DNA of 45,847 bases, taken from UHGV virus genome UHGV-0097969; one strand, written 5' to 3'. Positions 11,208 through 45,194 of the stretch are shown in pieces. Source of the stretch: a virus. The notes beneath the pieces were generated by a model that saw only the letters and a program-made list of their open reading frames with translations, did no database searches and was not told the DNA's origin. The position numbers were made by a program, and so were the translations under genes. Within the stretch, counting starts at the first letter, position 1. Each line of letters starts with the position of its first letter.

Positions 11208-11693
11208 TTAGATAAACTCCTGAGACTGAATATTCTGAGGCTTTAATACTATCCACGTTCCAGTTGCTTCCGTTATCCAATATGGATACGGTTGATCATC
11301 AAACATTCGCCATCTGATATCGCCCTGAAAGAGAAATTTCTCTTCAAGTAAAGGCTTCTCCTGAAAATGAAACATCATCCTTTCAAGAAGAGCCATTACC
11401 CATTCATATCCAGTATGGTCCTCACAAAAACCACCTAGAAGAAACTTAACCTTAACTTCATCCGTTTCAGGCTGCATACCTCCTTCCGTGGGCCTGATAA
11501 TCACATGAGGAAATTCTGGCGGTTTATCTGGAGATGGTTGTGATTTAGGAGGCAAGTACCCTTTAAATATTGTTGGAACAAACAATTTAATATCGCTGTC
11601 TGTTTCATCATAAGGAGGTCCCTGCACTAATAAATCATGGAAAACCTCATGTTCCAACCGATTTTTTATTGCATCTATCAAAAGATTAATCAA
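11208..11693 (-). CDS. hypothetical protein (possible tail completion)
   Basis: 161 aa, position between head and tail genes. Confidence 0.35.
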   Translation of the reverse strand: MINLLIDAIKNRLEHEVFHDLLVQGPPYDETDSDIKLFVPTIFKGYLPPKSQPSPDKPPEFPHVIIRPTEGGMQPETDEVKVKFLLGGFCEDHTGYEWVMALLERMMFHFQEKPLLEEKFLFQGDIRWRMFDDQPYPYWITEATGTWIVLKPQNIQSQEFI

Positions 11694-12034
11694 ATCGGCA
11701 TTCCTCTGTTAGTATTAACAGTGAGAGTTATTTCCAATACACCAACATTATCTGATACTTCATCAACAATATAATTTTTACCGTTGATTTTCATTGACTG
11801 GTCTTTGACAGGGAGAACAGGAAAATCTTTTCTTGAAACAAATAATATTATTTGCCCCTGATTTATTCCCTCTGCAAACTCAGCATATGAGCGTTTATTC
11901 CGCTCATGAATAAGGTCTGTATCAATAACGGCAAGGATATCCTTGCCGTCTATGTTATATGTATCGGCAAACTCTTTTTCATTGAGGAATATTGCAGAAA
12001 TATCTTGCGCTATAACCTCTTTGAAGGAGTTCAT
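11690..12034 (-). CDS. hypothetical protein (possible head-tail connector)
   Basis: 114 aa, 4-nt overlap with neighbours. Confidence 0.35.
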   Translation of the reverse strand: MNSFKEVIAQDISAIFLNEKEFADTYNIDGKDILAVIDTDLIHERNKRSYAEFAEGINQGQIILFVSRKDFPVLPVKDQSMKINGKNYIVDEVSDNVGVLEITLTVNTNRGMPI

Positions 12035-26028: not shown

Positions 26029-26104
26029 TGGTGGCCCCTACCGGATTTGAACCGATGACCGTGCGATTATGAGTCGCCTGCTCTAACCACTGAGCTAAGG
26101 GGCC
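26029..26104 (-). tRNA. tRNA with CAU anticodon (Ile2 or Met), CCA encoded
   Basis: Reverse complement GGCCCCTTAGCTCAGTGGTTAGAGCAGGCGACTCATAATCGCACGGTCATCGGTTCAAATCCGGTAGGGGCCACCA folds as a cloverleaf (7-bp acceptor, GCTC/GAGC D stem, TTCAAAT T loop); first half resembles ileX-type as recalled. Confidence 0.85.
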
Positions 26105-34181: not shown

Positions 34182-34199
34182 TTAACGAACTCCAGTCAA

Positions 34200-34317
34200 A
34201 CCACGATATGTGGTATTAAAACCACATATCGTGAGTTTTTCAATGGGCGAAACAAAAAATAACCTTCTATTTGTGGTCCACCTCTCGTCTTACCATGTGA
34301 AAACCACTAAATGTGGT
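34200..34317. promoter_or_regulatory. operator cluster ACCAC-N5-GTGGT in the divergent immunity promoter region
   Basis: Perfect sites ACCACGATATGTGGT (34200-34214) and ACCACTAAATGTGGT (34303-34317), partial sites at 34221-34233 and 34272-34280. Confidence 0.55.
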
Positions 34318-34354
34318 AATGTATAAATAACCCACCATTCACGATTGATGAGAC

Positions 34355-35011
34355 ATGAAAAGCAACGACGAGAACATCAAGAAAGAAATAGGTCTGCGCA
34401 TTCAGACTCTACGGAAACAATCCGGCATGACTGCCGGAGATCTCCAGCAAGTCACTGGAATAGGCTTAAGCACCTTGCAGAACTATGAGGCCGGATTAAG
34501 ACAACCATCTATACCTGCCATCAAGAAAATCGCGCACGCCCTGAAAGCATCAGCGCCTTATATCGCGTGCTTAACAGATAACCCGTTCCCACCCCAGAAT
34601 ACTAACGCTCCTGTTATTCCTGGGCTTGTAGCTATAAAAAATGACATAGCATCGCACGCCGGAGAAAAGCCAGTGCTGGCGATAGAACAGGAGATTCTAC
34701 GAAGCAAGAACATCAACCCATCGTCTCTGTCAGTTCTCCAGAGCAACGATGAGTTAATGTCACCAACAATATCCCCAGGCTCCCAAGTCCTGATTAATAC
34801 AGACGATACAGAGATTCATGAGGGGATCTATGCCCTTGAAGACAGAAATGGCCTGGTTGTTTTGAGGCACTGTAGAGTCATACCGGGTGACAATGCTGTT
34901 ATGCTGTCAACCGAAAGGGATGCTGAAATGAACACTAAGCATCTGAATAACGAGGAATTTAAGCGTTATAAAGTTCTGGGCCGCGTAGTTAGTGTTGTCA
35001 ACTGGTTATGA
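34355..35011 (+). CDS. CI-like repressor (HTH plus S24/LexA-like C-terminal domain)
   Basis: HTH ...QSGMTAGDLQQVTGIGLSTLQNYEAG...; C-terminal domain of LexA/CI type. Confidence 0.8.
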   Translation: MKSNDENIKKEIGLRIQTLRKQSGMTAGDLQQVTGIGLSTLQNYEAGLRQPSIPAIKKIAHALKASAPYIACLTDNPFPPQNTNAPVIPGLVAIKNDIASHAGEKPVLAIEQEILRSKNINPSSLSVLQSNDELMSPTISPGSQVLINTDDTEIHEGIYALEDRNGLVVLRHCRVIPGDNAVMLSTERDAEMNTKHLNNEEFKRYKVLGRVVSVVNWL

Positions 35012-35103
35012 TACACAGCACGGCGAAAGCCGTGCATTTCTACGCTCAAAAAAACCACGCTTTGTGGTTTTGACAACATGTGAAAGTATAAAAGAGGCTA
35101 CGC

Positions 35104-35478
35104 ATGGAATTACATACAGCCAATAAAAACGAAACTCTGATCACTGCTGGAATCGAAATCCAAGCGTTGAACATAGCGATTGAGTGTATGTTATGCCAAA
35201 TCATTGATAATGAGAAAGATATCGACTGGATAGAATCTATCCTTCATCTGGCATCAGAACAAAAAGTCTGCCTCAAAACGGCCTTACAATACGATGTGCC
35301 AGCGGTATCGAAGCTGTGCCAGCCATTGATGGCATATAACAGGGCTATTATTTCTGTATGCCTCATGATTCTCGATGAAAACACCCCTCTTAGCGACCGC
35401 TCAGAAGCTGCTCTAACCCTCTCACGTAAACAGCGACAGCTAGCAAATCAACTGATATCAACGATAGCTGACCTCTGA
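35104..35478 (+). CDS. hypothetical protein downstream of the repressor
   Basis: AAGAGG 6 nt upstream of ATG; hairpin GCGGGC-taac-GCCCGC after the stop. Confidence 0.4.
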   Translation: MELHTANKNETLITAGIEIQALNIAIECMLCQIIDNEKDIDWIESILHLASEQKVCLKTALQYDVPAVSKLCQPLMAYNRAIISVCLMILDENTPLSDRSEAALTLSRKQRQLANQLISTIADL

Positions 35479-35500: not shown

Positions 35501-35606
35501 TTATATGATTATAGATTTATATAATTATATAAAACACTTTTCATCAGCCAAAAAGTTGGTTATGCTTACCTCGTTCTATAAATATAGATTTATAGAATTA
35601 TATAAC
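35501..35606. repeat. AT-rich octamer arrays upstream of parA (candidate centromere/operator)
   Basis: ttatatga ttatagat ttatataa ttatataa at 35501-35532 and tatagatttatagaattatataa at 35580-35606; similar array at 36281-36314. Confidence 0.45.
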
Positions 35607-35613
35607 CAAACAC

Positions 35614-36282
35614 ATGGAGTCTCGACAAATGACTATCTCTGTAGGTATTTTCAACGGAAAAGGCGGCGTAACCAAATCAACAATTGCCCGTGCTTTAGCA
35701 GTTGCTTATGCAAAGGCCGGCTGGAATGTATGCCTGATCGATATGGATGTGCTTAACGGAACGGTAACGCGTTGGGTACAACGCAGAATGGCCAACAATA
35801 TCGAACCTGCAATCGCGGCGCAGCCGTGCGGCACACCATCACAAGTCCAGAAAATCATCGAATCAGAAGTATACGACCTGGTTATCGTCGATGGCGGTGC
35901 CTACGCATCTGAATCAGTACCGAAGCTCTCTGAATTTCTGGATATGGTTATTTTGCCAACCAGATTCTCTACCGATGACCTGGAAACCACCGTTAACACA
36001 GCTCATGGCATCGTTAAAAAGGGTGTGCCAATCAAGAAAATTTGCATGGTGTTCTCAGGCGCGGCTGAAAACGAAGCCGACTACATTGAAGCCCAAGAGT
36101 ACCTGGCTAATACGCCATACTTTGTTGTCGATAAGTACATTCCCCACAAGCCAGCTCTGAGCAAAGCTCAGGATAAGGGCTTAAGCCTCATTGAGTGCTC
36201 ATACGTTGCGCCACGCAAAAAGGCAGACGACGTTATTCAGGGGATTATCAACCAGCTTGAGGCTCTGACTACTGCCGCGTAA
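35614..36282 (+). CDS. parA: ParA/ParF-type partition ATPase (type Ib)
   Basis: Deviant Walker A GIFNGKGGVTKST; about 220 aa; probable true start ATG at 35629 with GGAG upstream. Confidence 0.85.
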   Translation: MESRQMTISVGIFNGKGGVTKSTIARALAVAYAKAGWNVCLIDMDVLNGTVTRWVQRRMANNIEPAIAAQPCGTPSQVQKIIESEVYDLVIVDGGAYASESVPKLSEFLDMVILPTRFSTDDLETTVNTAHGIVKKGVPIKKICMVFSGAAENEADYIEAQEYLANTPYFVVDKYIPHKPALSKAQDKGLSLIECSYVAPRKKADDVIQGIINQLEALTTAA

Positions 36283-36325
36283 TATATAATTATAGTTTTA
36301 TAGATTTATATAAGAGGGGATACAC

Positions 36326-36795: not shown

Positions 36796-36819
36796 TAAAA
36801 AAGGCCCCCGAAGGGGCCT
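36796..36819 (-). terminator. intrinsic terminator between convergent units
   Basis: AGGCCCC-cgaa-GGGGCCT stem with T-run on the minus strand. Confidence 0.5.
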
Positions 36820-36824
36820 AATCG

Positions 36825-36947
36825 CTACTTGCTGCTAATGTTTATCGTCACATTCAGAGCGTTATCAGTAATCTTCCAACCCTCCCCATGTGGCGTAAAC
36901 AAAGCTCCAGTAACAACGATAAAAATACACATGTAGTATTTTTTCAT
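36825..36947 (-). CDS. small hydrophobic peptide (40 aa), putative
   Basis: MKKYYMCIFIVVTGALFTPHG...; AAGGG SD; terminator directly after the stop. Confidence 0.3.
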   Translation of the reverse strand: MKKYYMCIFIVVTGALFTPHGEGWKITDNALNVTINISSK

Positions 36948-37261
36948 TGTGTGGCCCTTACAGGCCGTTTCACGGCATCCCCACCGACGAAAATGACGCG
37001 AGAGCAAGCACGCTGTTTGTGCCTGCGTGGTACGGCAAGTGGATAATCCTTTCCTGAAAGTCAGTGCCCGGGTGCGAATCGGCGGAAAGGCCCCAAGCCA
37101 TATTACACGTCATACCCTTCATAATGAAGGAATAAAAAACGCTTTTATTACATAAGATTACACGTAAATAAGTTAAAAACCTTCATTTTGCATGAGCTAA
37201 TGAGCTAAATTTTTTTATATGAATAGTGGACTATTCACCTCAGTTGGGTAAGAATGTAGTT

Positions 37262-37365
37262 GCTGTTTGTGCTTGCGTGGTTGTATTAGTACAACGACGT
37301 TATGCTGAAAGGACCGCGAATCCGATCAGCACGAAAGAACCGTCCTCAAAAGGACGGTTTTTTTG
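37262..37365 (+). ncRNA. candidate small RNA (about 100 nt)
   Basis: Promoter-like TGGACT-N17-AAGAAT (37227-37255), strong terminator ACCGTCCT-caaa-AGGACGGT plus T6 at 37339-37365; 3' end overlaps the stop of the convergent HTH gene. Confidence 0.35.
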
Positions 37366-37918
37366 TTTCTCCCCCTTCCTTCCCAAATGATTCAAATGTT
37401 AATGAGAGTGAATCATTTGATATGTTCGATTTAGCGCCGTTATCGACCCAATTTCTGTATGCTTCATCACAACAGTACCTTACAGCAGTTGGAATAACAG
37501 GAGAGCCGCCCAGAAATGAAAATCCCATTGAGCTTATGCTAATTCTTTCGAATGGCCTATTTCTCAATGCTTCAAATCCCTTGCTGTTGAAGTAACTCAG
37601 CATCAGAGGTAAAAGGTTATCCTCGTCTTGACTGATTGTTCCCGGGAAAAAGTAGTAACCATGGCGATTAAATTCGGGAATCAGTTTTTCTACCAACAAC
37701 ATGAAATTCATTGGGGTAATATTAAGGGCAGAGCAAGCACCAAAAAGAGCATCAACCGTTAATACAGACTGTCCGTTCTCTATCTTTGTCCATGCGTTTG
37801 GTGTTTTTCCAGCAGCTTGAGCCAGCACTCCTTGATGCACACCTCTTTCTAGCCTAAGTTCTTTTATGATCATTAGGTGGATTGTTGAAAAACATGAGTT
37901 TTTTGACGTTTCAGTCAT
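37346..37918 (-). CDS. HTH (XRE-type) regulator with C-terminal domain of unknown function
   Basis: Likely ATG at 37918 (track 37975); divergent from the antirepressor operon. Confidence 0.5.
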   Translation of the reverse strand: MTETSKNSCFSTIHLMIIKELRLERGVHQGVLAQAAGKTPNAWTKIENGQSVLTVDALFGACSALNITPMNFMLLVEKLIPEFNRHGYYFFPGTISQDEDNLLPLMLSYFNSKGFEALRNRPFERISISSMGFSFLGGSPVIPTAVRYCCDEAYRNWVDNGAKSNISNDSLSLTFESFGKEGGETKKPSF

Positions 37919-38056
37919 TTTTTTATCCCCATATTGAATTTTTTCCTTGTTCCCAACTTTAACAAAACACCACAACTCAGGATTGAGTCATTCCCTACAG
38001 GAACTATACATTCCCGTATTTGGTATATCAAGAAAATTAAAAGCTCGGCATTCAAA

Positions 38057-38071
38057 CCCACACTATGTGGT
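38057..38071. promoter_or_regulatory. operator-like site CCCAC-N5-GTGGT upstream of the antirepressor operon
   Basis: One mismatch to the ACCAC-N5-GTGGT sites at the cI/cro region; sits about 25 bp upstream of a TTGACA -35. Confidence 0.4.
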
Positions 38072-38094
38072 TTAGTCTGTTAAAATCCGCCGTA

Positions 38095-38203
38095 TTGACA
38101 TGAATGCGCCATTGGTGGACACTTTCCGAGCCGTAGCAAAATCTACGGTCGGGATTGGAACCCCGTAGACACAATGGCGCATACCGCGTTAGCGGTTTTT
38201 TTA
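38095..38203 (+). promoter_or_regulatory. promoter plus structured leader with intrinsic terminator (attenuator or small RNA) ahead of the antirepressor operon
   Basis: TTGACA at 38095-38100; hairpin CCGTAG-caaaat-CTACGG; long-range GCGCCATTG...CAATGGCGC; terminator ACCGC-gtta-GCGGT plus T7 at 38183-38202. Confidence 0.35.
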
Positions 38204-38368
38204 TGCGTAAAGCACTGCTACACCCAAATTATGGTGGGGCGTGCGGGGGAGTCGTAAGACTCGCCGGTTCGTCATTGTGTCCGGTAGTTCCAACCCAGCA
38301 CGTCTCACCACCCAATGATTGGAACCTGACGGTGGTGAGTATCCTTAACCTTTAAGGGAATCATCACA

Positions 38369-38560
38369 ATGACAAACCTACCCCATGACTATTACGTCAA
38401 CCTCGTAAAGATCCTTCTCAAGAAAGCCTCATACGCCGATAAATTCCGCTTGGCTGAAATAATCGAGCGCGAAGCTATGCGCATCGCCAGCAACGATAAC
38501 GCTGTTTCTGACGCAAAAATCTCCCTCGTAACCAAAGTAGTTATGGGAGGTGCAAAATGA
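38369..38560 (+). CDS. small protein upstream of and coupled to the antirepressor
   Basis: 63 aa, AAGGGA SD; stop overlaps next start (ATGA). Confidence 0.4.
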   Translation: MTNLPHDYYVNLVKILLKKASYADKFRLAEIIEREAMRIASNDNAVSDAKISLVTKVVMGGAK

Positions 38561-39738
38561 AAACGCTTCCGACCGTTAACACCCTACAGCCTATCCTGCA
38601 TAACCAAATCCCCGTTATCACTACTGAACTACTGGCAAAGCTATACGGCACAGACGTTGATAACATCAAAAAAAATTACTCACGTAACGCAAACCGCTTT
38701 ATTGAAGGAAAGCATTTTTTCAAAGTGGCTGGCGATGAGTTAAAAACTTTGCGAGTGACTTTAAGTCACTCACAAAATTTGCGACTGGTTTTAAACGAGT
38801 CACAAAATGAGGTGCAAATTTCCCCCAAAACTCGCTCTCTCATCCTCTGGACAGAACGCGGGGCTGCACGTCACGCCAAAATGCTTGAAACTAACCAAGC
38901 GTGGGATGTGTTCGAACGGCTGGAAGACTGCTACTTCAACCAGAACGCGCAAACGGCCGCGACCGTTACCGTCTCGCCAAACAATGCTCGTGAGGTTGTC
39001 GATACGCTCAACGCCAAACCGATGTTTTACATTAAAGTGTGCAACAACGAGCCACTCACAACCTCAGCCGATGTTGCCCAGGCATTCAGCACCACAAACA
39101 ATTCCATCGTTATGGCCATCGATGCGCTACGCATTCCTCGCACGGCTGCGGCGCGTCACTTCTTTAAAGAGCAACGACCGCTGGAAGGAAGCGACCGCGA
39201 AATAACAATCTATCGCATGACAAAAGACGGATTTACCTTACTCATGGAGAGCATCGACGGTCCAAGCGTGAAAGATATCAAGCTGGCCTACATTGAAGCC
39301 TTTAACGCTATCAGCAGCGTGTTAAAAACACAGTACGAGCGTGATCTGGCTAAACGACTGTACCAGGAAAAAACGATTATCCGCGCGGCAACAGAGCATA
39401 ATCGGCTATTAACGGAACCGAACTACAGGAAGGAACTAATCAAGGAGTTTGACAAGGCAACAGGAAAAACCAAAGCGGCGCTAAATCTGCCAGCAATGAC
39501 TCAGGAAAATGTGATATCAGCCTTACTTCTTGATCTGCTCAGAAACGCCAGAGCACTGATCAGCTTTGACGAAAACCTGAATCCTCAGCTCAAGCTACTA
39601 CCACCGACAGGCAAAGTAGTCGACCAGGCAGATCACAACAGCATACTCAGCGTACTGGATGCAAACCTACCAGCCAGGACACTACAGGAACTGATAAAGA
39701 TATCGGCGGATAAACTGGCCGCAGGTGCAAAACCATAA
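38557..39738 (+). CDS. Rha-family phage regulatory protein / antirepressor (ORF6N-like N-terminus plus Rha domain)
   Basis: ...ILWTERGAARHAKMLETNQAWDVFERLEDCYF... and ...ITIYRMTKDGFTLLMESIDGPSVKDIKLAYIEAFNAI... resemble ORF6N and Rha signatures. Confidence 0.55.
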   Translation: MKTLPTVNTLQPILHNQIPVITTELLAKLYGTDVDNIKKNYSRNANRFIEGKHFFKVAGDELKTLRVTLSHSQNLRLVLNESQNEVQISPKTRSLILWTERGAARHAKMLETNQAWDVFERLEDCYFNQNAQTAATVTVSPNNAREVVDTLNAKPMFYIKVCNNEPLTTSADVAQAFSTTNNSIVMAIDALRIPRTAAARHFFKEQRPLEGSDREITIYRMTKDGFTLLMESIDGPSVKDIKLAYIEAFNAISSVLKTQYERDLAKRLYQEKTIIRAATEHNRLLTEPNYRKELIKEFDKATGKTKAALNLPAMTQENVISALLLDLLRNARALISFDENLNPQLKLLPPTGKVVDQADHNSILSVLDANLPARTLQELIKISADKLAAGAKP

Positions 39739-44032: not shown

Positions 44033-44881
44033 TTAATGTTGGAGTGATTTCCAGGTCTTTCTTAGCCTGTTATAACGCTGCTCAACGAGGGAGCGTAAAT
44101 ATGCAAGGTCAGCTCCAGGATACATGCCATCAGCAAATTCCTGGCTAACCTCTCTAGTGATTTGATGACGAAGTTCGGCCTCTCCCTTTTCCCGAACAAG
44201 ACGCGCAGCTCTCTCCGCTGCTTTCTGTTTTGCCTTTATCTCTCTGGCCGTCTTCCTCTGACGCCATACATTCTCCATCTGCTCCTGAATAACAATACGC
44301 TTATAATCAGCCTCCGTTATCGCTTTTTTAAGCCGTTCGCTATTCTTCGCATTGAAGTAATTAAGTTTCTGGCTAACCGCACGTCTCCATGCTTGTTCAG
44401 TAATACCAACGGTTTCCAGCAGTTGATCACGAATCTCTATTTTCGCTGGCCAATACTGTTTATTCACCCGATCCCAGCGACGTTCATAATCAATAAAACC
44501 TAACGCTTTCAGTTGCGACAACGCCCTTGTACAGCGCGTTATAGACTTGTTCCCAGCTTCGGATACGGTAGACAGGCCGCAAAAATCAGCCAACGCCTCA
44601 GCACTAGCCAGAACCCGCTTAGAAATGATGTTTACATGGTGCAAAATCGCAGCGATCACAGCATTAATCGCCCGACGACGATGCTCGTTTATCCGGCGCT
44701 TCCGCTCTGACGGTTGATTAACGTAGAACGCAACCTCACACGTAAGATCACGCCCATTAATGCGCTGTAAAGCATCAGATAACACCAGCGGCAGCTTGTG
44801 CGTATGGTGCTTTGGAGGCTGGAACTCCGGCGACAAATTACAAACGTAAGCTGAACGTAGAGACGGCATTGGTCTATCCAT
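44033..44881 (-). CDS. repA: replication initiator RepA, IncFII RepA1-like
   Basis: ...CGLSTVSEAGNKSITRCTRALSQLKALGFIDYERRWD... resembles R100/R1 RepA1; basic C-terminus; in-frame upstream ATG at 45013 would add 44 aa. Confidence 0.75.
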   Translation of the reverse strand: MDRPMPSLRSAYVCNLSPEFQPPKHHTHKLPLVLSDALQRINGRDLTCEVAFYVNQPSERKRRINEHRRRAINAVIAAILHHVNIISKRVLASAEALADFCGLSTVSEAGNKSITRCTRALSQLKALGFIDYERRWDRVNKQYWPAKIEIRDQLLETVGITEQAWRRAVSQKLNYFNAKNSERLKKAITEADYKRIVIQEQMENVWRQRKTAREIKAKQKAAERAARLVREKGEAELRHQITREVSQEFADGMYPGADLAYLRSLVEQRYNRLRKTWKSLQH

Positions 44882-44925
44882 ATGTTCGCTCTTGCGTCCA
44901 CGGAAAACCAACGTATAATGGGAGT

Positions 44926-45006
44926 TGTCGAGGCGCCCATGGATTGTTGTTGTTGGTTTTCCGTGGATGTCGCAAGAAGCCCGCAGATTTATCTGCGGGC
45001 TTTTTG
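44926..45006 (+). ncRNA. CopA-like antisense RNA in the repA leader
   Basis: Promoter TTGCGT-N16-TATAAT (44892-44919) and terminator GCCCGCAGA-ttta-TCTGCGGGC plus T5 (44979-45005), opposite to repA. Confidence 0.45.
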
Positions 45007-45194
45007 TTTCCATATCTGGTCACTTTCCAACCAGACACCCACAATCATAACCACGTTACGTGGTTTTAAGAGAACTCTACCACAACACTTTCGGTCATGC
45101 ACGAAGTCTCTCACTGATCGAACGATAATCCACCAGTAAAAGGATCTAAATTGGATCTCGTTTTGCGAGCATCATACTACTGGCCTAACTCCAG

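Follow-up and report, generated by a model that had tools for sequence, protein, structure and literature searches.

Temperate phages 186, N15 and Gifsy have non-cleaved repressors that are inactivated by LexA-controlled antirepressors (PMC3121763). In Gifsy-1, the RNA IsrK acts in trans and opens translation of orf45 and the coupled gene anrP, whose antirepressor-like product, AnrP, increases the expression of a phage operon under repression (PMC4825925). Here, we describe the immunity region of virus genome UHGV-0097969, a stretch of 45,847 nucleotides that was analysed in full (hereafter, the window), in which a predicted immunity repressor of 218 amino acids (aa) has lost the catalytic Ser/Lys dyad of S24-type repressors and a predicted antirepressor gene, ant, lies downstream in a cassette with isrK-like and C4 antisense RNAs (coordinates in Table 1). 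The best explanation of the whole, which we favour with moderate confidence, is a non-cleaving master repressor that is inactivated by the antirepressor of the cassette. Over a tested stretch of 2.8 kb, the window shares 99% identity with ~48-kb circular, non-mobilizable plasmids of Escherichia coli (E. coli). PLSDB contains 58 complete plasmids of this kind, including one from the reference strain ATCC 25922. Three Yersinia phage isolates, vB_YpM_39, 41 and 44, are as close to the window as these plasmids. A complete relative is annotated with myovirus tail and head genes, lysis genes, an IncFII-type RepA, ParA and a HigB-type toxin; the element is a phage-plasmid, a ~48-kb circular one of myovirus type found in E. 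coli. Phage-plasmids of this 48-kb type occur commonly in E. coli, and Yersinia pestis has served as host for the isolation of infectious virions. Literature searches on the element, its Yersinia phage isolates and the regulation of the ATCC 25922 phage-plasmid found no experimental or lysis-lysogeny work. The phage vB_YpM_HQ103, of 32 kb, is unrelated.

An earlier sequence-only reading of the window had placed a CI-like repressor at 34355-35011, and an open reading frame (ORF) of 218 aa is indeed found there, on the plus strand. A full-length PHROG match assigns its product to phrog_4 ("transcriptional repressor", E 9.6e-27), and a second match, to phrog_6201 ("CI-like repressor"), spans aa 110-214. 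The Pfam family Peptidase_S24 (PF00717) is sub-threshold over aa 113-212, at 18.4 bits where the gathering score is 23.3, and a precomputed PF00717 match is present on 0 of the 13 homologues that are at least 60% identical to the repressor. These 13 proteins, found among 5.8 billion sequences, make up a small family, of which 12 were aligned; an exhaustive profile search added many distant full-length relatives (7,219 hits). A canonical S24 reference alignment was assembled from LexA, lambda CI and UmuD (sequences taken from the lambda and K-12 records) together with 9 canonical homologues. Compared with this set, the family-only profile of the C-terminal domain gave an hhalign probability of 98.6% (E 6.4e-16, 98 columns), and a hidden Markov model (HMM) profile of 46 C-terminal domains covered the S24 domain of UmuD in full (residues 49-136) and also aligned to LexA. 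The two independent alignments agree in register, placing Leu134 at the catalytic Ser (LexA Ser119, UmuD Ser60) and Arg171 at the catalytic Lys (LexA Lys156, UmuD Lys97). Both stretches are invariant in 12 of the 12 aligned family members, the one as D-x-L-M-x-P-T-I, with Leu134 and Met135, and the other as R-H-C-R (Arg171-His172-Cys173-Arg174). The earlier claim of a lost S24 dyad is therefore upheld by the HMM and hhalign alignments to LexA, CI and UmuD, and so is its reading of the Ser motif as NDELM, in which Leu134 aligns with LexA Ser119. Its equation of VLRH with the VKRL of the Lys motif was correct in that no Lys is present, but was off by one in register: LRHC corresponds to VKRL, and Arg171, not Leu170, is at the catalytic position. 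Single-sequence and family-only searches against PDB sequences matched only helix-turn-helix (HTH) domains, the C-terminal domain being too divergent, and a family-only HMM run against LexA, CI and UmuD was uninformative; hhalign was decisive.

An AlphaFold2 (AF2) model of the repressor, built on a 46-sequence alignment that included distant representatives, has a mean predicted local distance difference test score (pLDDT) of 90.6, whereas on the 12-sequence family alignment alone the C-terminal domain had a pLDDT below 50. The model keeps a cleavage-site-like hairpin and the loop that holds Ala102-Gly103. For an Ala-Gly cleavage site, which the sequence-only reading had counted as a sign of self-cleavage, the outcome is mixed: the pair is present in the window repressor, yet its relatives have SG, TG, PG, GS or no Gly there, and the linker that contains it lies outside the hhalign-aligned stretch, with no alignment to the LexA cleavage site. 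With no nucleophilic Ser, the S24 self-cleavage mechanism is excluded on sequence grounds, and the repressor almost certainly does not cleave itself. Of the corresponding LexA mutants, S119A is reportedly inactive and K156R is said to cleave poorly, at very high pH. Sequence and profile evidence, the predicted structure and the conservation pattern give good support to a non-autocleaving CI-like repressor, and as judged from the alignments the protein keeps the S24 (LexA/CI/UmuD) fold without the Ser/Lys dyad. Within the family the HTH_3 domain is the best-conserved part, with a ratio of nonsynonymous to synonymous divergence (dN/dS) of ~0.04-0.07. For the C-terminal domain, the proportion of nonsynonymous differences between relatives (pN) is 0.14-0.29 and dN/dS is ~0.1-0.2, with synonymous sites saturated (proportion of synonymous differences, pS, 0.53-0.87). 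Because it is under purifying selection, the C-terminal domain is a maintained, functional pseudo-protease and no decaying remnant.

The substitutions extend beyond the immediate family. Across 70 homologues, the Ser and Lys columns hold L/R in 19, S/R in 13, S/K in 12 and A/R in 9, with other pairs rarer; Arg is at the Lys position in 48 of the 70, the repressor's own family included, and canonical Ser/Lys members (G-D-S-M...V-K-R) are found only among the more distant homologues. The repressor falls within a broad clade of CI-like proteins with Arg at the Lys position (R-W-I-R or R-H-C-R) and a variable Ser position. The finding points to a sizeable group of CI-like repressors, annotated automatically only as "XRE family" or "helix-turn-helix", with a protease-like domain that is dead yet conserved. 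A further idea, which we regard as a long shot, is that this is an undescribed large clade, with Arg systematically in place of Lys, in which the dead cleft has taken on a new role as a docking site under regulation, for an antirepressor or for the protein's own linker; the invariant His-Cys pair of the repressor family might in turn sense redox or metal state. If such docking or sensing were real, phage-plasmids would have an SOS-independent induction switch with no LexA input.

The surroundings of the gene are arranged as one would expect for a master immunity repressor. It is divergent from a long early operon, with a Ref nuclease, DUF1064 and DUF3560 among the products, and the 173-bp intergenic region (34182-34354) contains three operators, O1 to O3, with the 15-bp palindromic consensus ACCAC-N5-GTGGT. 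Allowing at most one mismatch, this consensus occurs 8 times in the window compared to 0.70 expected, and 0 of 100 shuffles reached 8. The early operon is presumably repressed from O1/O2, and O3 likely serves autoregulation of the repressor. Citrobacter and Klebsiella relatives, with repressors 61-65% identical to that of the window, have the same synteny, with operators at the same positions. As relatives with 60-65% identity share both recognition helix and operator with the window repressor, covariation of operator and repressor carries no information here. Judged from its sequence and setting, the protein is likely the master repressor of the phage-plasmid.

The Rha-family antirepressor operon that had been assigned to 38369-39738 is borne out by ORF, Pfam and PHROG evidence. 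The product of ant has Pfam matches to ORF6N (1.1e-20) and Phage_pRha (1.5e-12), matches anti-repressor PHROGs with E down to 4.5e-60, and is 49% identical over aa 1-163 to Gifsy-1 AnrP; by this resemblance, Ant would be an antirepressor that acts on the resident repressor. The leader ORF upstream ends within the start of ant (ATGA at 38557-38560), and the two are probably translationally coupled. In the C4 antisense RNA, element b' is complementary to b2 and b1, and element a' to a1 and a2, as 7-9-mers, and b2 spans the ATG of the leader ORF. Elements a' and b' change together with both targets across the window, L002/L006, L007, L008 and L009 (relatives are given by L number), with at least 4 specificity types, as in the series GTTCCAA/TTGGAAC, ACGCCAA/TTGGCGT and CTGCAAA/TTTGCAG. 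This co-change is therefore strong comparative evidence for C4 pairing. The window and L006/L002, otherwise 99% identical, have different b elements (CATTGTGTC in the window compared to CCATGGTGA), so that plasmids which are nearly the same have exchanged their antisense specificity, as P1 and P7 have.

A related operator that the sequence-only reading had noted at 38057-38071 proves to be among the 8 enriched sites. In L007 and L008, the operator at the O1 position, next to the repressor gene, has the CCCAC half-site as well. In the 58 related plasmids, cassette homology starts at query position 12-15, exactly at the window operator, and all 58 carry the cassette together with the repressor. 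The operator is kept in the window/L002, L006/L012 and L011 despite three different upstream sequences, with variation in the spacer alone (A or G), which makes the site a part of the cassette in the E. coli lineage. The operator is located 23 bp upstream of TTGACA-17-GACACT, a conserved promoter-like element that would start isrK. An extended -10-like motif, TGTTAAAAT (38078-38086), read by eye, would set the operator over the -35 of a second promoter. The flank beyond the operator is variable: the window has a gene for a 209-aa HTH_3 protein (37346-37975, minus strand) divergent from the cassette, L006/L012 have terminator-like sequence at this position, and L011 has a different HTH gene.

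If the dyad is dead, lysogeny must therefore end in another way than by self-cleavage. In the circuit that we propose, the HTH_3 domain would bind the 15-bp operators at O1-O3, at O4, at the cassette and in front of repA. Leu134 in place of the nucleophilic Ser and Arg171 in place of the general-base Lys would preclude RecA-stimulated self-cleavage, and the pseudo-S24 domain would be retained for dimerisation or cooperativity, possibly also as a docking surface. The likeliest agent to end lysogeny would be the 393-aa antirepressor encoded ~3.5 kb downstream. Its gene would be silenced both by the repressor, through an operator of its own that borders the cassette upstream, and by the C4-type antisense RNA, pairing with the start region of the coupled 63-aa leader ORF, and the isrK-like RNA would carry decoy copies of the C4 targets. 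We infer that the repressor is the master regulator, that Ant binds to it and that Ant is the route of induction; induction through a Rha/ORF6N antirepressor is plausible, and is strengthened by the strict co-occurrence of cassette and repressor and by the operator at the cassette edge.

A link to the SOS response was sought in the DNA itself. LexA boxes, for which the sequence-only reading had pointed to 38000-38370, were found neither there nor in the rest of the window: with up to one mismatch allowed, CTGT-N8-ACAG is absent from 38000-38370 and occurs 14 times in the window, compared to 13.6 expected by chance. A search for 20-mers that combine both CTG/CAG cores with 13 or more of 20 consensus matches found none in either the window or L006, a complete relative. 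As no LexA box was found, the wiring of 186, N15 and Gifsy, in which LexA represses the antirepressor, is absent. The sole exact CTGT-N8-ACAG in the window (CTGTTAGTATTAACAG, 11706-11721) has 12 of 20 consensus matches by hand count, lies at the junction of two minus-strand structural-gene ORFs (11208-11693 and 11690-12034) and was judged to be due to chance. If the repressor is unable to cleave itself and LexA boxes are indeed missing, induction may depart from the usual DNA-damage logic, which matters for predicting the spread of the element, for example under antibiotic treatment.

Several observations weigh against Ant as the route of induction. With no LexA box at the cassette, in the rest of the window or in the complete relative, nothing ties Ant expression to DNA damage. 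The distance from the cassette operator to the TTGACA -35 would demand an overlapping second promoter or looping for repression, and a sigma-70 scan flagged no promoter overlapping that operator. The Citrobacter relatives L007 and L008 are without the operator at their own cassettes, in L009 the operator is imperfect and differently spaced from the cassette, and L010, a Klebsiella aerogenes contig whose repressor (P0010) carries the same Leu/Arg substitutions, has no isrK, C4 or cassette at the syntenic position (12 kb of the 46-kb contig). Cassettes with isrK and C4 are widespread in records of Stx and other lambdoid phages, with ST64B, phiP27, P1 and D6 also among the carriers, and lambdoid phages in general use a cleavable CI. 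In P1 and N15, cassettes of the isrK/C4 type are anti-immunity devices and not a route of SOS induction. The cassette described here could equally be a P1/N15-type anti-immunity device. On that account, which we consider rather unlikely, the repressor is non-cleaving, the isrK/C4/Ant cassette serves in anti-immunity or superinfection like P1 immI and N15 immA, and induction proceeds through a small inactivator (for example, the 124-aa ORF or a product of the early operon), through host proteases or through loss of the repressor. It is favoured by the missing LexA boxes, by the wide sharing of the cassette as a mobile module among lambdoid phage records, and by the state of L010, L007 and L008, and tight control by an antisense RNA speaks for a device that is off by default. 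The Gifsy precedent leans the same way, as the SOS-responsive Gifsy-1 antirepressor is a different, LexA-controlled gene (PMC3121763) and anrP answers to IsrK (PMC4825925). However, each of the 58 E. coli-type plasmids with this repressor also has the cassette, headed by a repressor-type operator, which suggests integration into the circuit of the element, and no alternative inactivator was identified, the 124-aa ORF having no family annotation.

Two further accounts concern the repressor itself. Removal by proteolysis, with no antirepressor, through substitute residues (His172/Cys173) or through ClpXP/Lon, would agree with the invariant R-H-C-R of the family and with the S24 fold, cleavage-site-like hairpin and Ala102-Gly103 loop that the predicted structure retains. 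We hold it to be distinctly improbable: the His and Cys are unconserved in the wider Arg clade (RWIR, RRIR, RNIR), His172 and Cys173 are neighbours on one beta-strand and face opposite ways, and the Ala-Gly pair is unconserved even within the family. To our knowledge, this account lacks a precedent. An accessory regulator of repA, of partition or of a moron, with a degenerate domain irrelevant to induction, is suggested by the exact operator in front of repA, by the position of the repressor gene next to the parA module and by the other HTH genes of the element, but is very hard to reconcile with the classic divergent layout, in which three operators face a long early operon and are kept across genera, and with the full-length match to phage repressor PHROGs; we give it hardly any weight.

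Table 1. Features of the repressor locus, antirepressor cassette and repA region, in window positions
Feature	Position	Strand	Basis or remarks
Predicted immunity repressor gene, 218 aa	34355..35011	+	ORF; HTH_3, linker and S24-fold C-terminal domain predicted to be catalytically dead
HTH_3 DNA-binding domain, aa 16-69	34400..34561	+	Pfam PF01381, E 4.5e-11
Ala102-Gly103 in linker, vestigial or coincidental "cleavage site"	34658..34663	+	Sequence; family conservation absent
Pseudo-S24 C-terminal domain, aa 106-218	34670..35008	+	
Leu134 (codon TTA), catalytic Ser position (LexA S119, UmuD S60)	34754..34756	+	Alignments
Arg171 (codon AGG), catalytic Lys position (LexA K156, UmuD K97)	34865..34867	+	Alignments
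Operator O1, ACCACGATATGTGGT	34200..34214	.	Exact; divergent intergenic region; position kept in L007-L010
Operator O2, ACCACATATCGTGAG	34221..34235	.	Imperfect; adjoins O1; relatives show ACCAC-N5-GTGGG at same place
Operator O3, ACCACTAAATGTGGT	34303..34317	.	Exact; just upstream of repressor gene; kept in relatives
Operator O4, ACCACGCTTTGTGGT	35054..35068	.	Exact; after repressor gene, before 124-aa ORF; kept in relatives
First gene of divergent early operon, 164 aa	33687..34181	-	phrog_7452, family without an assigned function; synteny conserved
124-aa ORF directly 3' of repressor gene	35104..35478	+	phrog_7632; present in all relatives examined
Repressor-type operator, CCCACACTATGTGGT	38057..38071	.	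One mismatch; left edge of antirepressor cassette
isrK-like RNA	38130..38202	+	Rfam RF01394, 67.7 bits (gathering score 50); terminator hairpin at end
C4 targets inside isrK	a1 38155-38161, b1 38168-38176	+	Complementarity
Terminator-like site of isrK	38183-38196		Terminator scan
C4 antisense RNA	38227..38315	+	Rfam RF01695, 74.1 bits (gathering score 45)
C4 pairing elements	b' 38271-38281, a' 38287-38293	+	Pairing, covariation
Leader with C4 targets	38319..38373	+	a2 38319-38325, b2 38365-38373
63-aa leader ORF	38369..38560	+	icd/orf45 position
Predicted antirepressor Ant, 393 aa	38557..39738	+	ORF6N/AnrP-like N-terminal domain, Rha domain, C-terminal extension
repA, IncFII-type	44033..45013	-	Annotation in relatives
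Operator, ACCACGTTACGTGGT	45050..45064	.	Exact, usual A/T flanks; ~37 bp upstream of repA start codon

Other features of the element were noted around these loci. Given the predicted operator at 45050-45064, the prophage repressor may also control plasmid replication. The 124-aa ORF, which has no Pfam match, stands behind an operator of its own, O4, and could be a co-regulator or an inactivator of the repressor; a hairpin at ~35018-35035, between the repressor gene and O4, was read by eye and is absent from the terminator-scan output. The early operon includes a homologue of Ref, the RecA-dependent nuclease of P1 (32541-32945, minus strand), with Pfam RecA_dep_nuc in relatives, where the counterpart is annotated "Ref family recombination enhancement nuclease"; a RecA-linked function thus stands beside a repressor that is predicted to be without RecA-stimulated chemistry. 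Arrays of AT-rich, ~8-bp-phased repeats (TTATAGATTTATA-like) at 35501-35613 and 36282-36321 flank the pair of parA and an 82-aa gene as inverted sets, and probably serve in partition as centromere-like sites. A full-length match to ryfA RNA (36797-37095, minus strand; Rfam 134.6 bits, gathering score 80) is located between the partition genes on one side and the antirepressor cassette on the other; it is also found in L011 and L012 and may be a type I toxin-antitoxin-like stabilisation locus. A tRNA gene is present at 26032-26104 on the minus strand (Rfam tRNA, 67 bits), and the Yersinia phage record has a tRNA-Met in the corresponding region.

Like lambda CI, P22 C2 and LexA, the repressor has palindromic operators in a divergent control region, and it differs from these proteins in Leu134, Arg171, the unconserved Ala-Gly and the sub-threshold Pfam S24 match. 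The repressor is therefore a non-peptidase homologue. The antirepressors of 186 (CI/Tum), N15 (CB/AntC) and Gifsy (GfoR/GtgR with GfoA/GftA) are LexA-controlled, whereas control by a repressor operator and an antisense RNA is predicted here; the Gifsy repressors are small single-domain proteins (PMC3121763), in contrast to the full pseudo-S24 domain of the window repressor. The isrK-orf45-anrP region of Gifsy-1 has the same order as the cassette, with isrK, a C4-type RNA, a short leader ORF and a coupled antirepressor-like gene (PMC4825925). AnrP has 187 aa, whereas Ant has 393 aa and contains a Rha domain and a C-terminal region in addition, and the leader ORF of Ant has 63 aa; unlike in Gifsy-1, the cassette is preceded by the operator of the resident repressor and the host element is a plasmid-prophage. 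The RNA layout is the same in P1 (c4-a1b1, C4, icd, ant1) as in Gifsy-1 (isrK, C4, anrP) and the window. P1/P7 immI (c4-icd-ant, with the C1 operator Op51) and N15 immA are alike in further respects: they belong to plasmid prophages, an operator of the primary repressor heads the operon, a1/b1 and C4 are followed by a2/b2 at the start of the leader ORF and by a coupled ant, and the a/b specificity shifts between relatives. P1 Ant1 and Icd, considered as relatives of Ant and the leader ORF, have no protein similarity to them, and the primary repressor here, of HTH_3/pseudo-S24 type, is unrelated to P1 C1. Both halves of the proposed circuit have clear precedents, in non-peptidase S24 homologues such as the C-terminal domain of 186 CI and in the antisense-controlled ant cassettes of Gifsy-1 and P1. 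The phage-plasmid thus presents a known strategy in a little-studied but common element, and no new kind of system.

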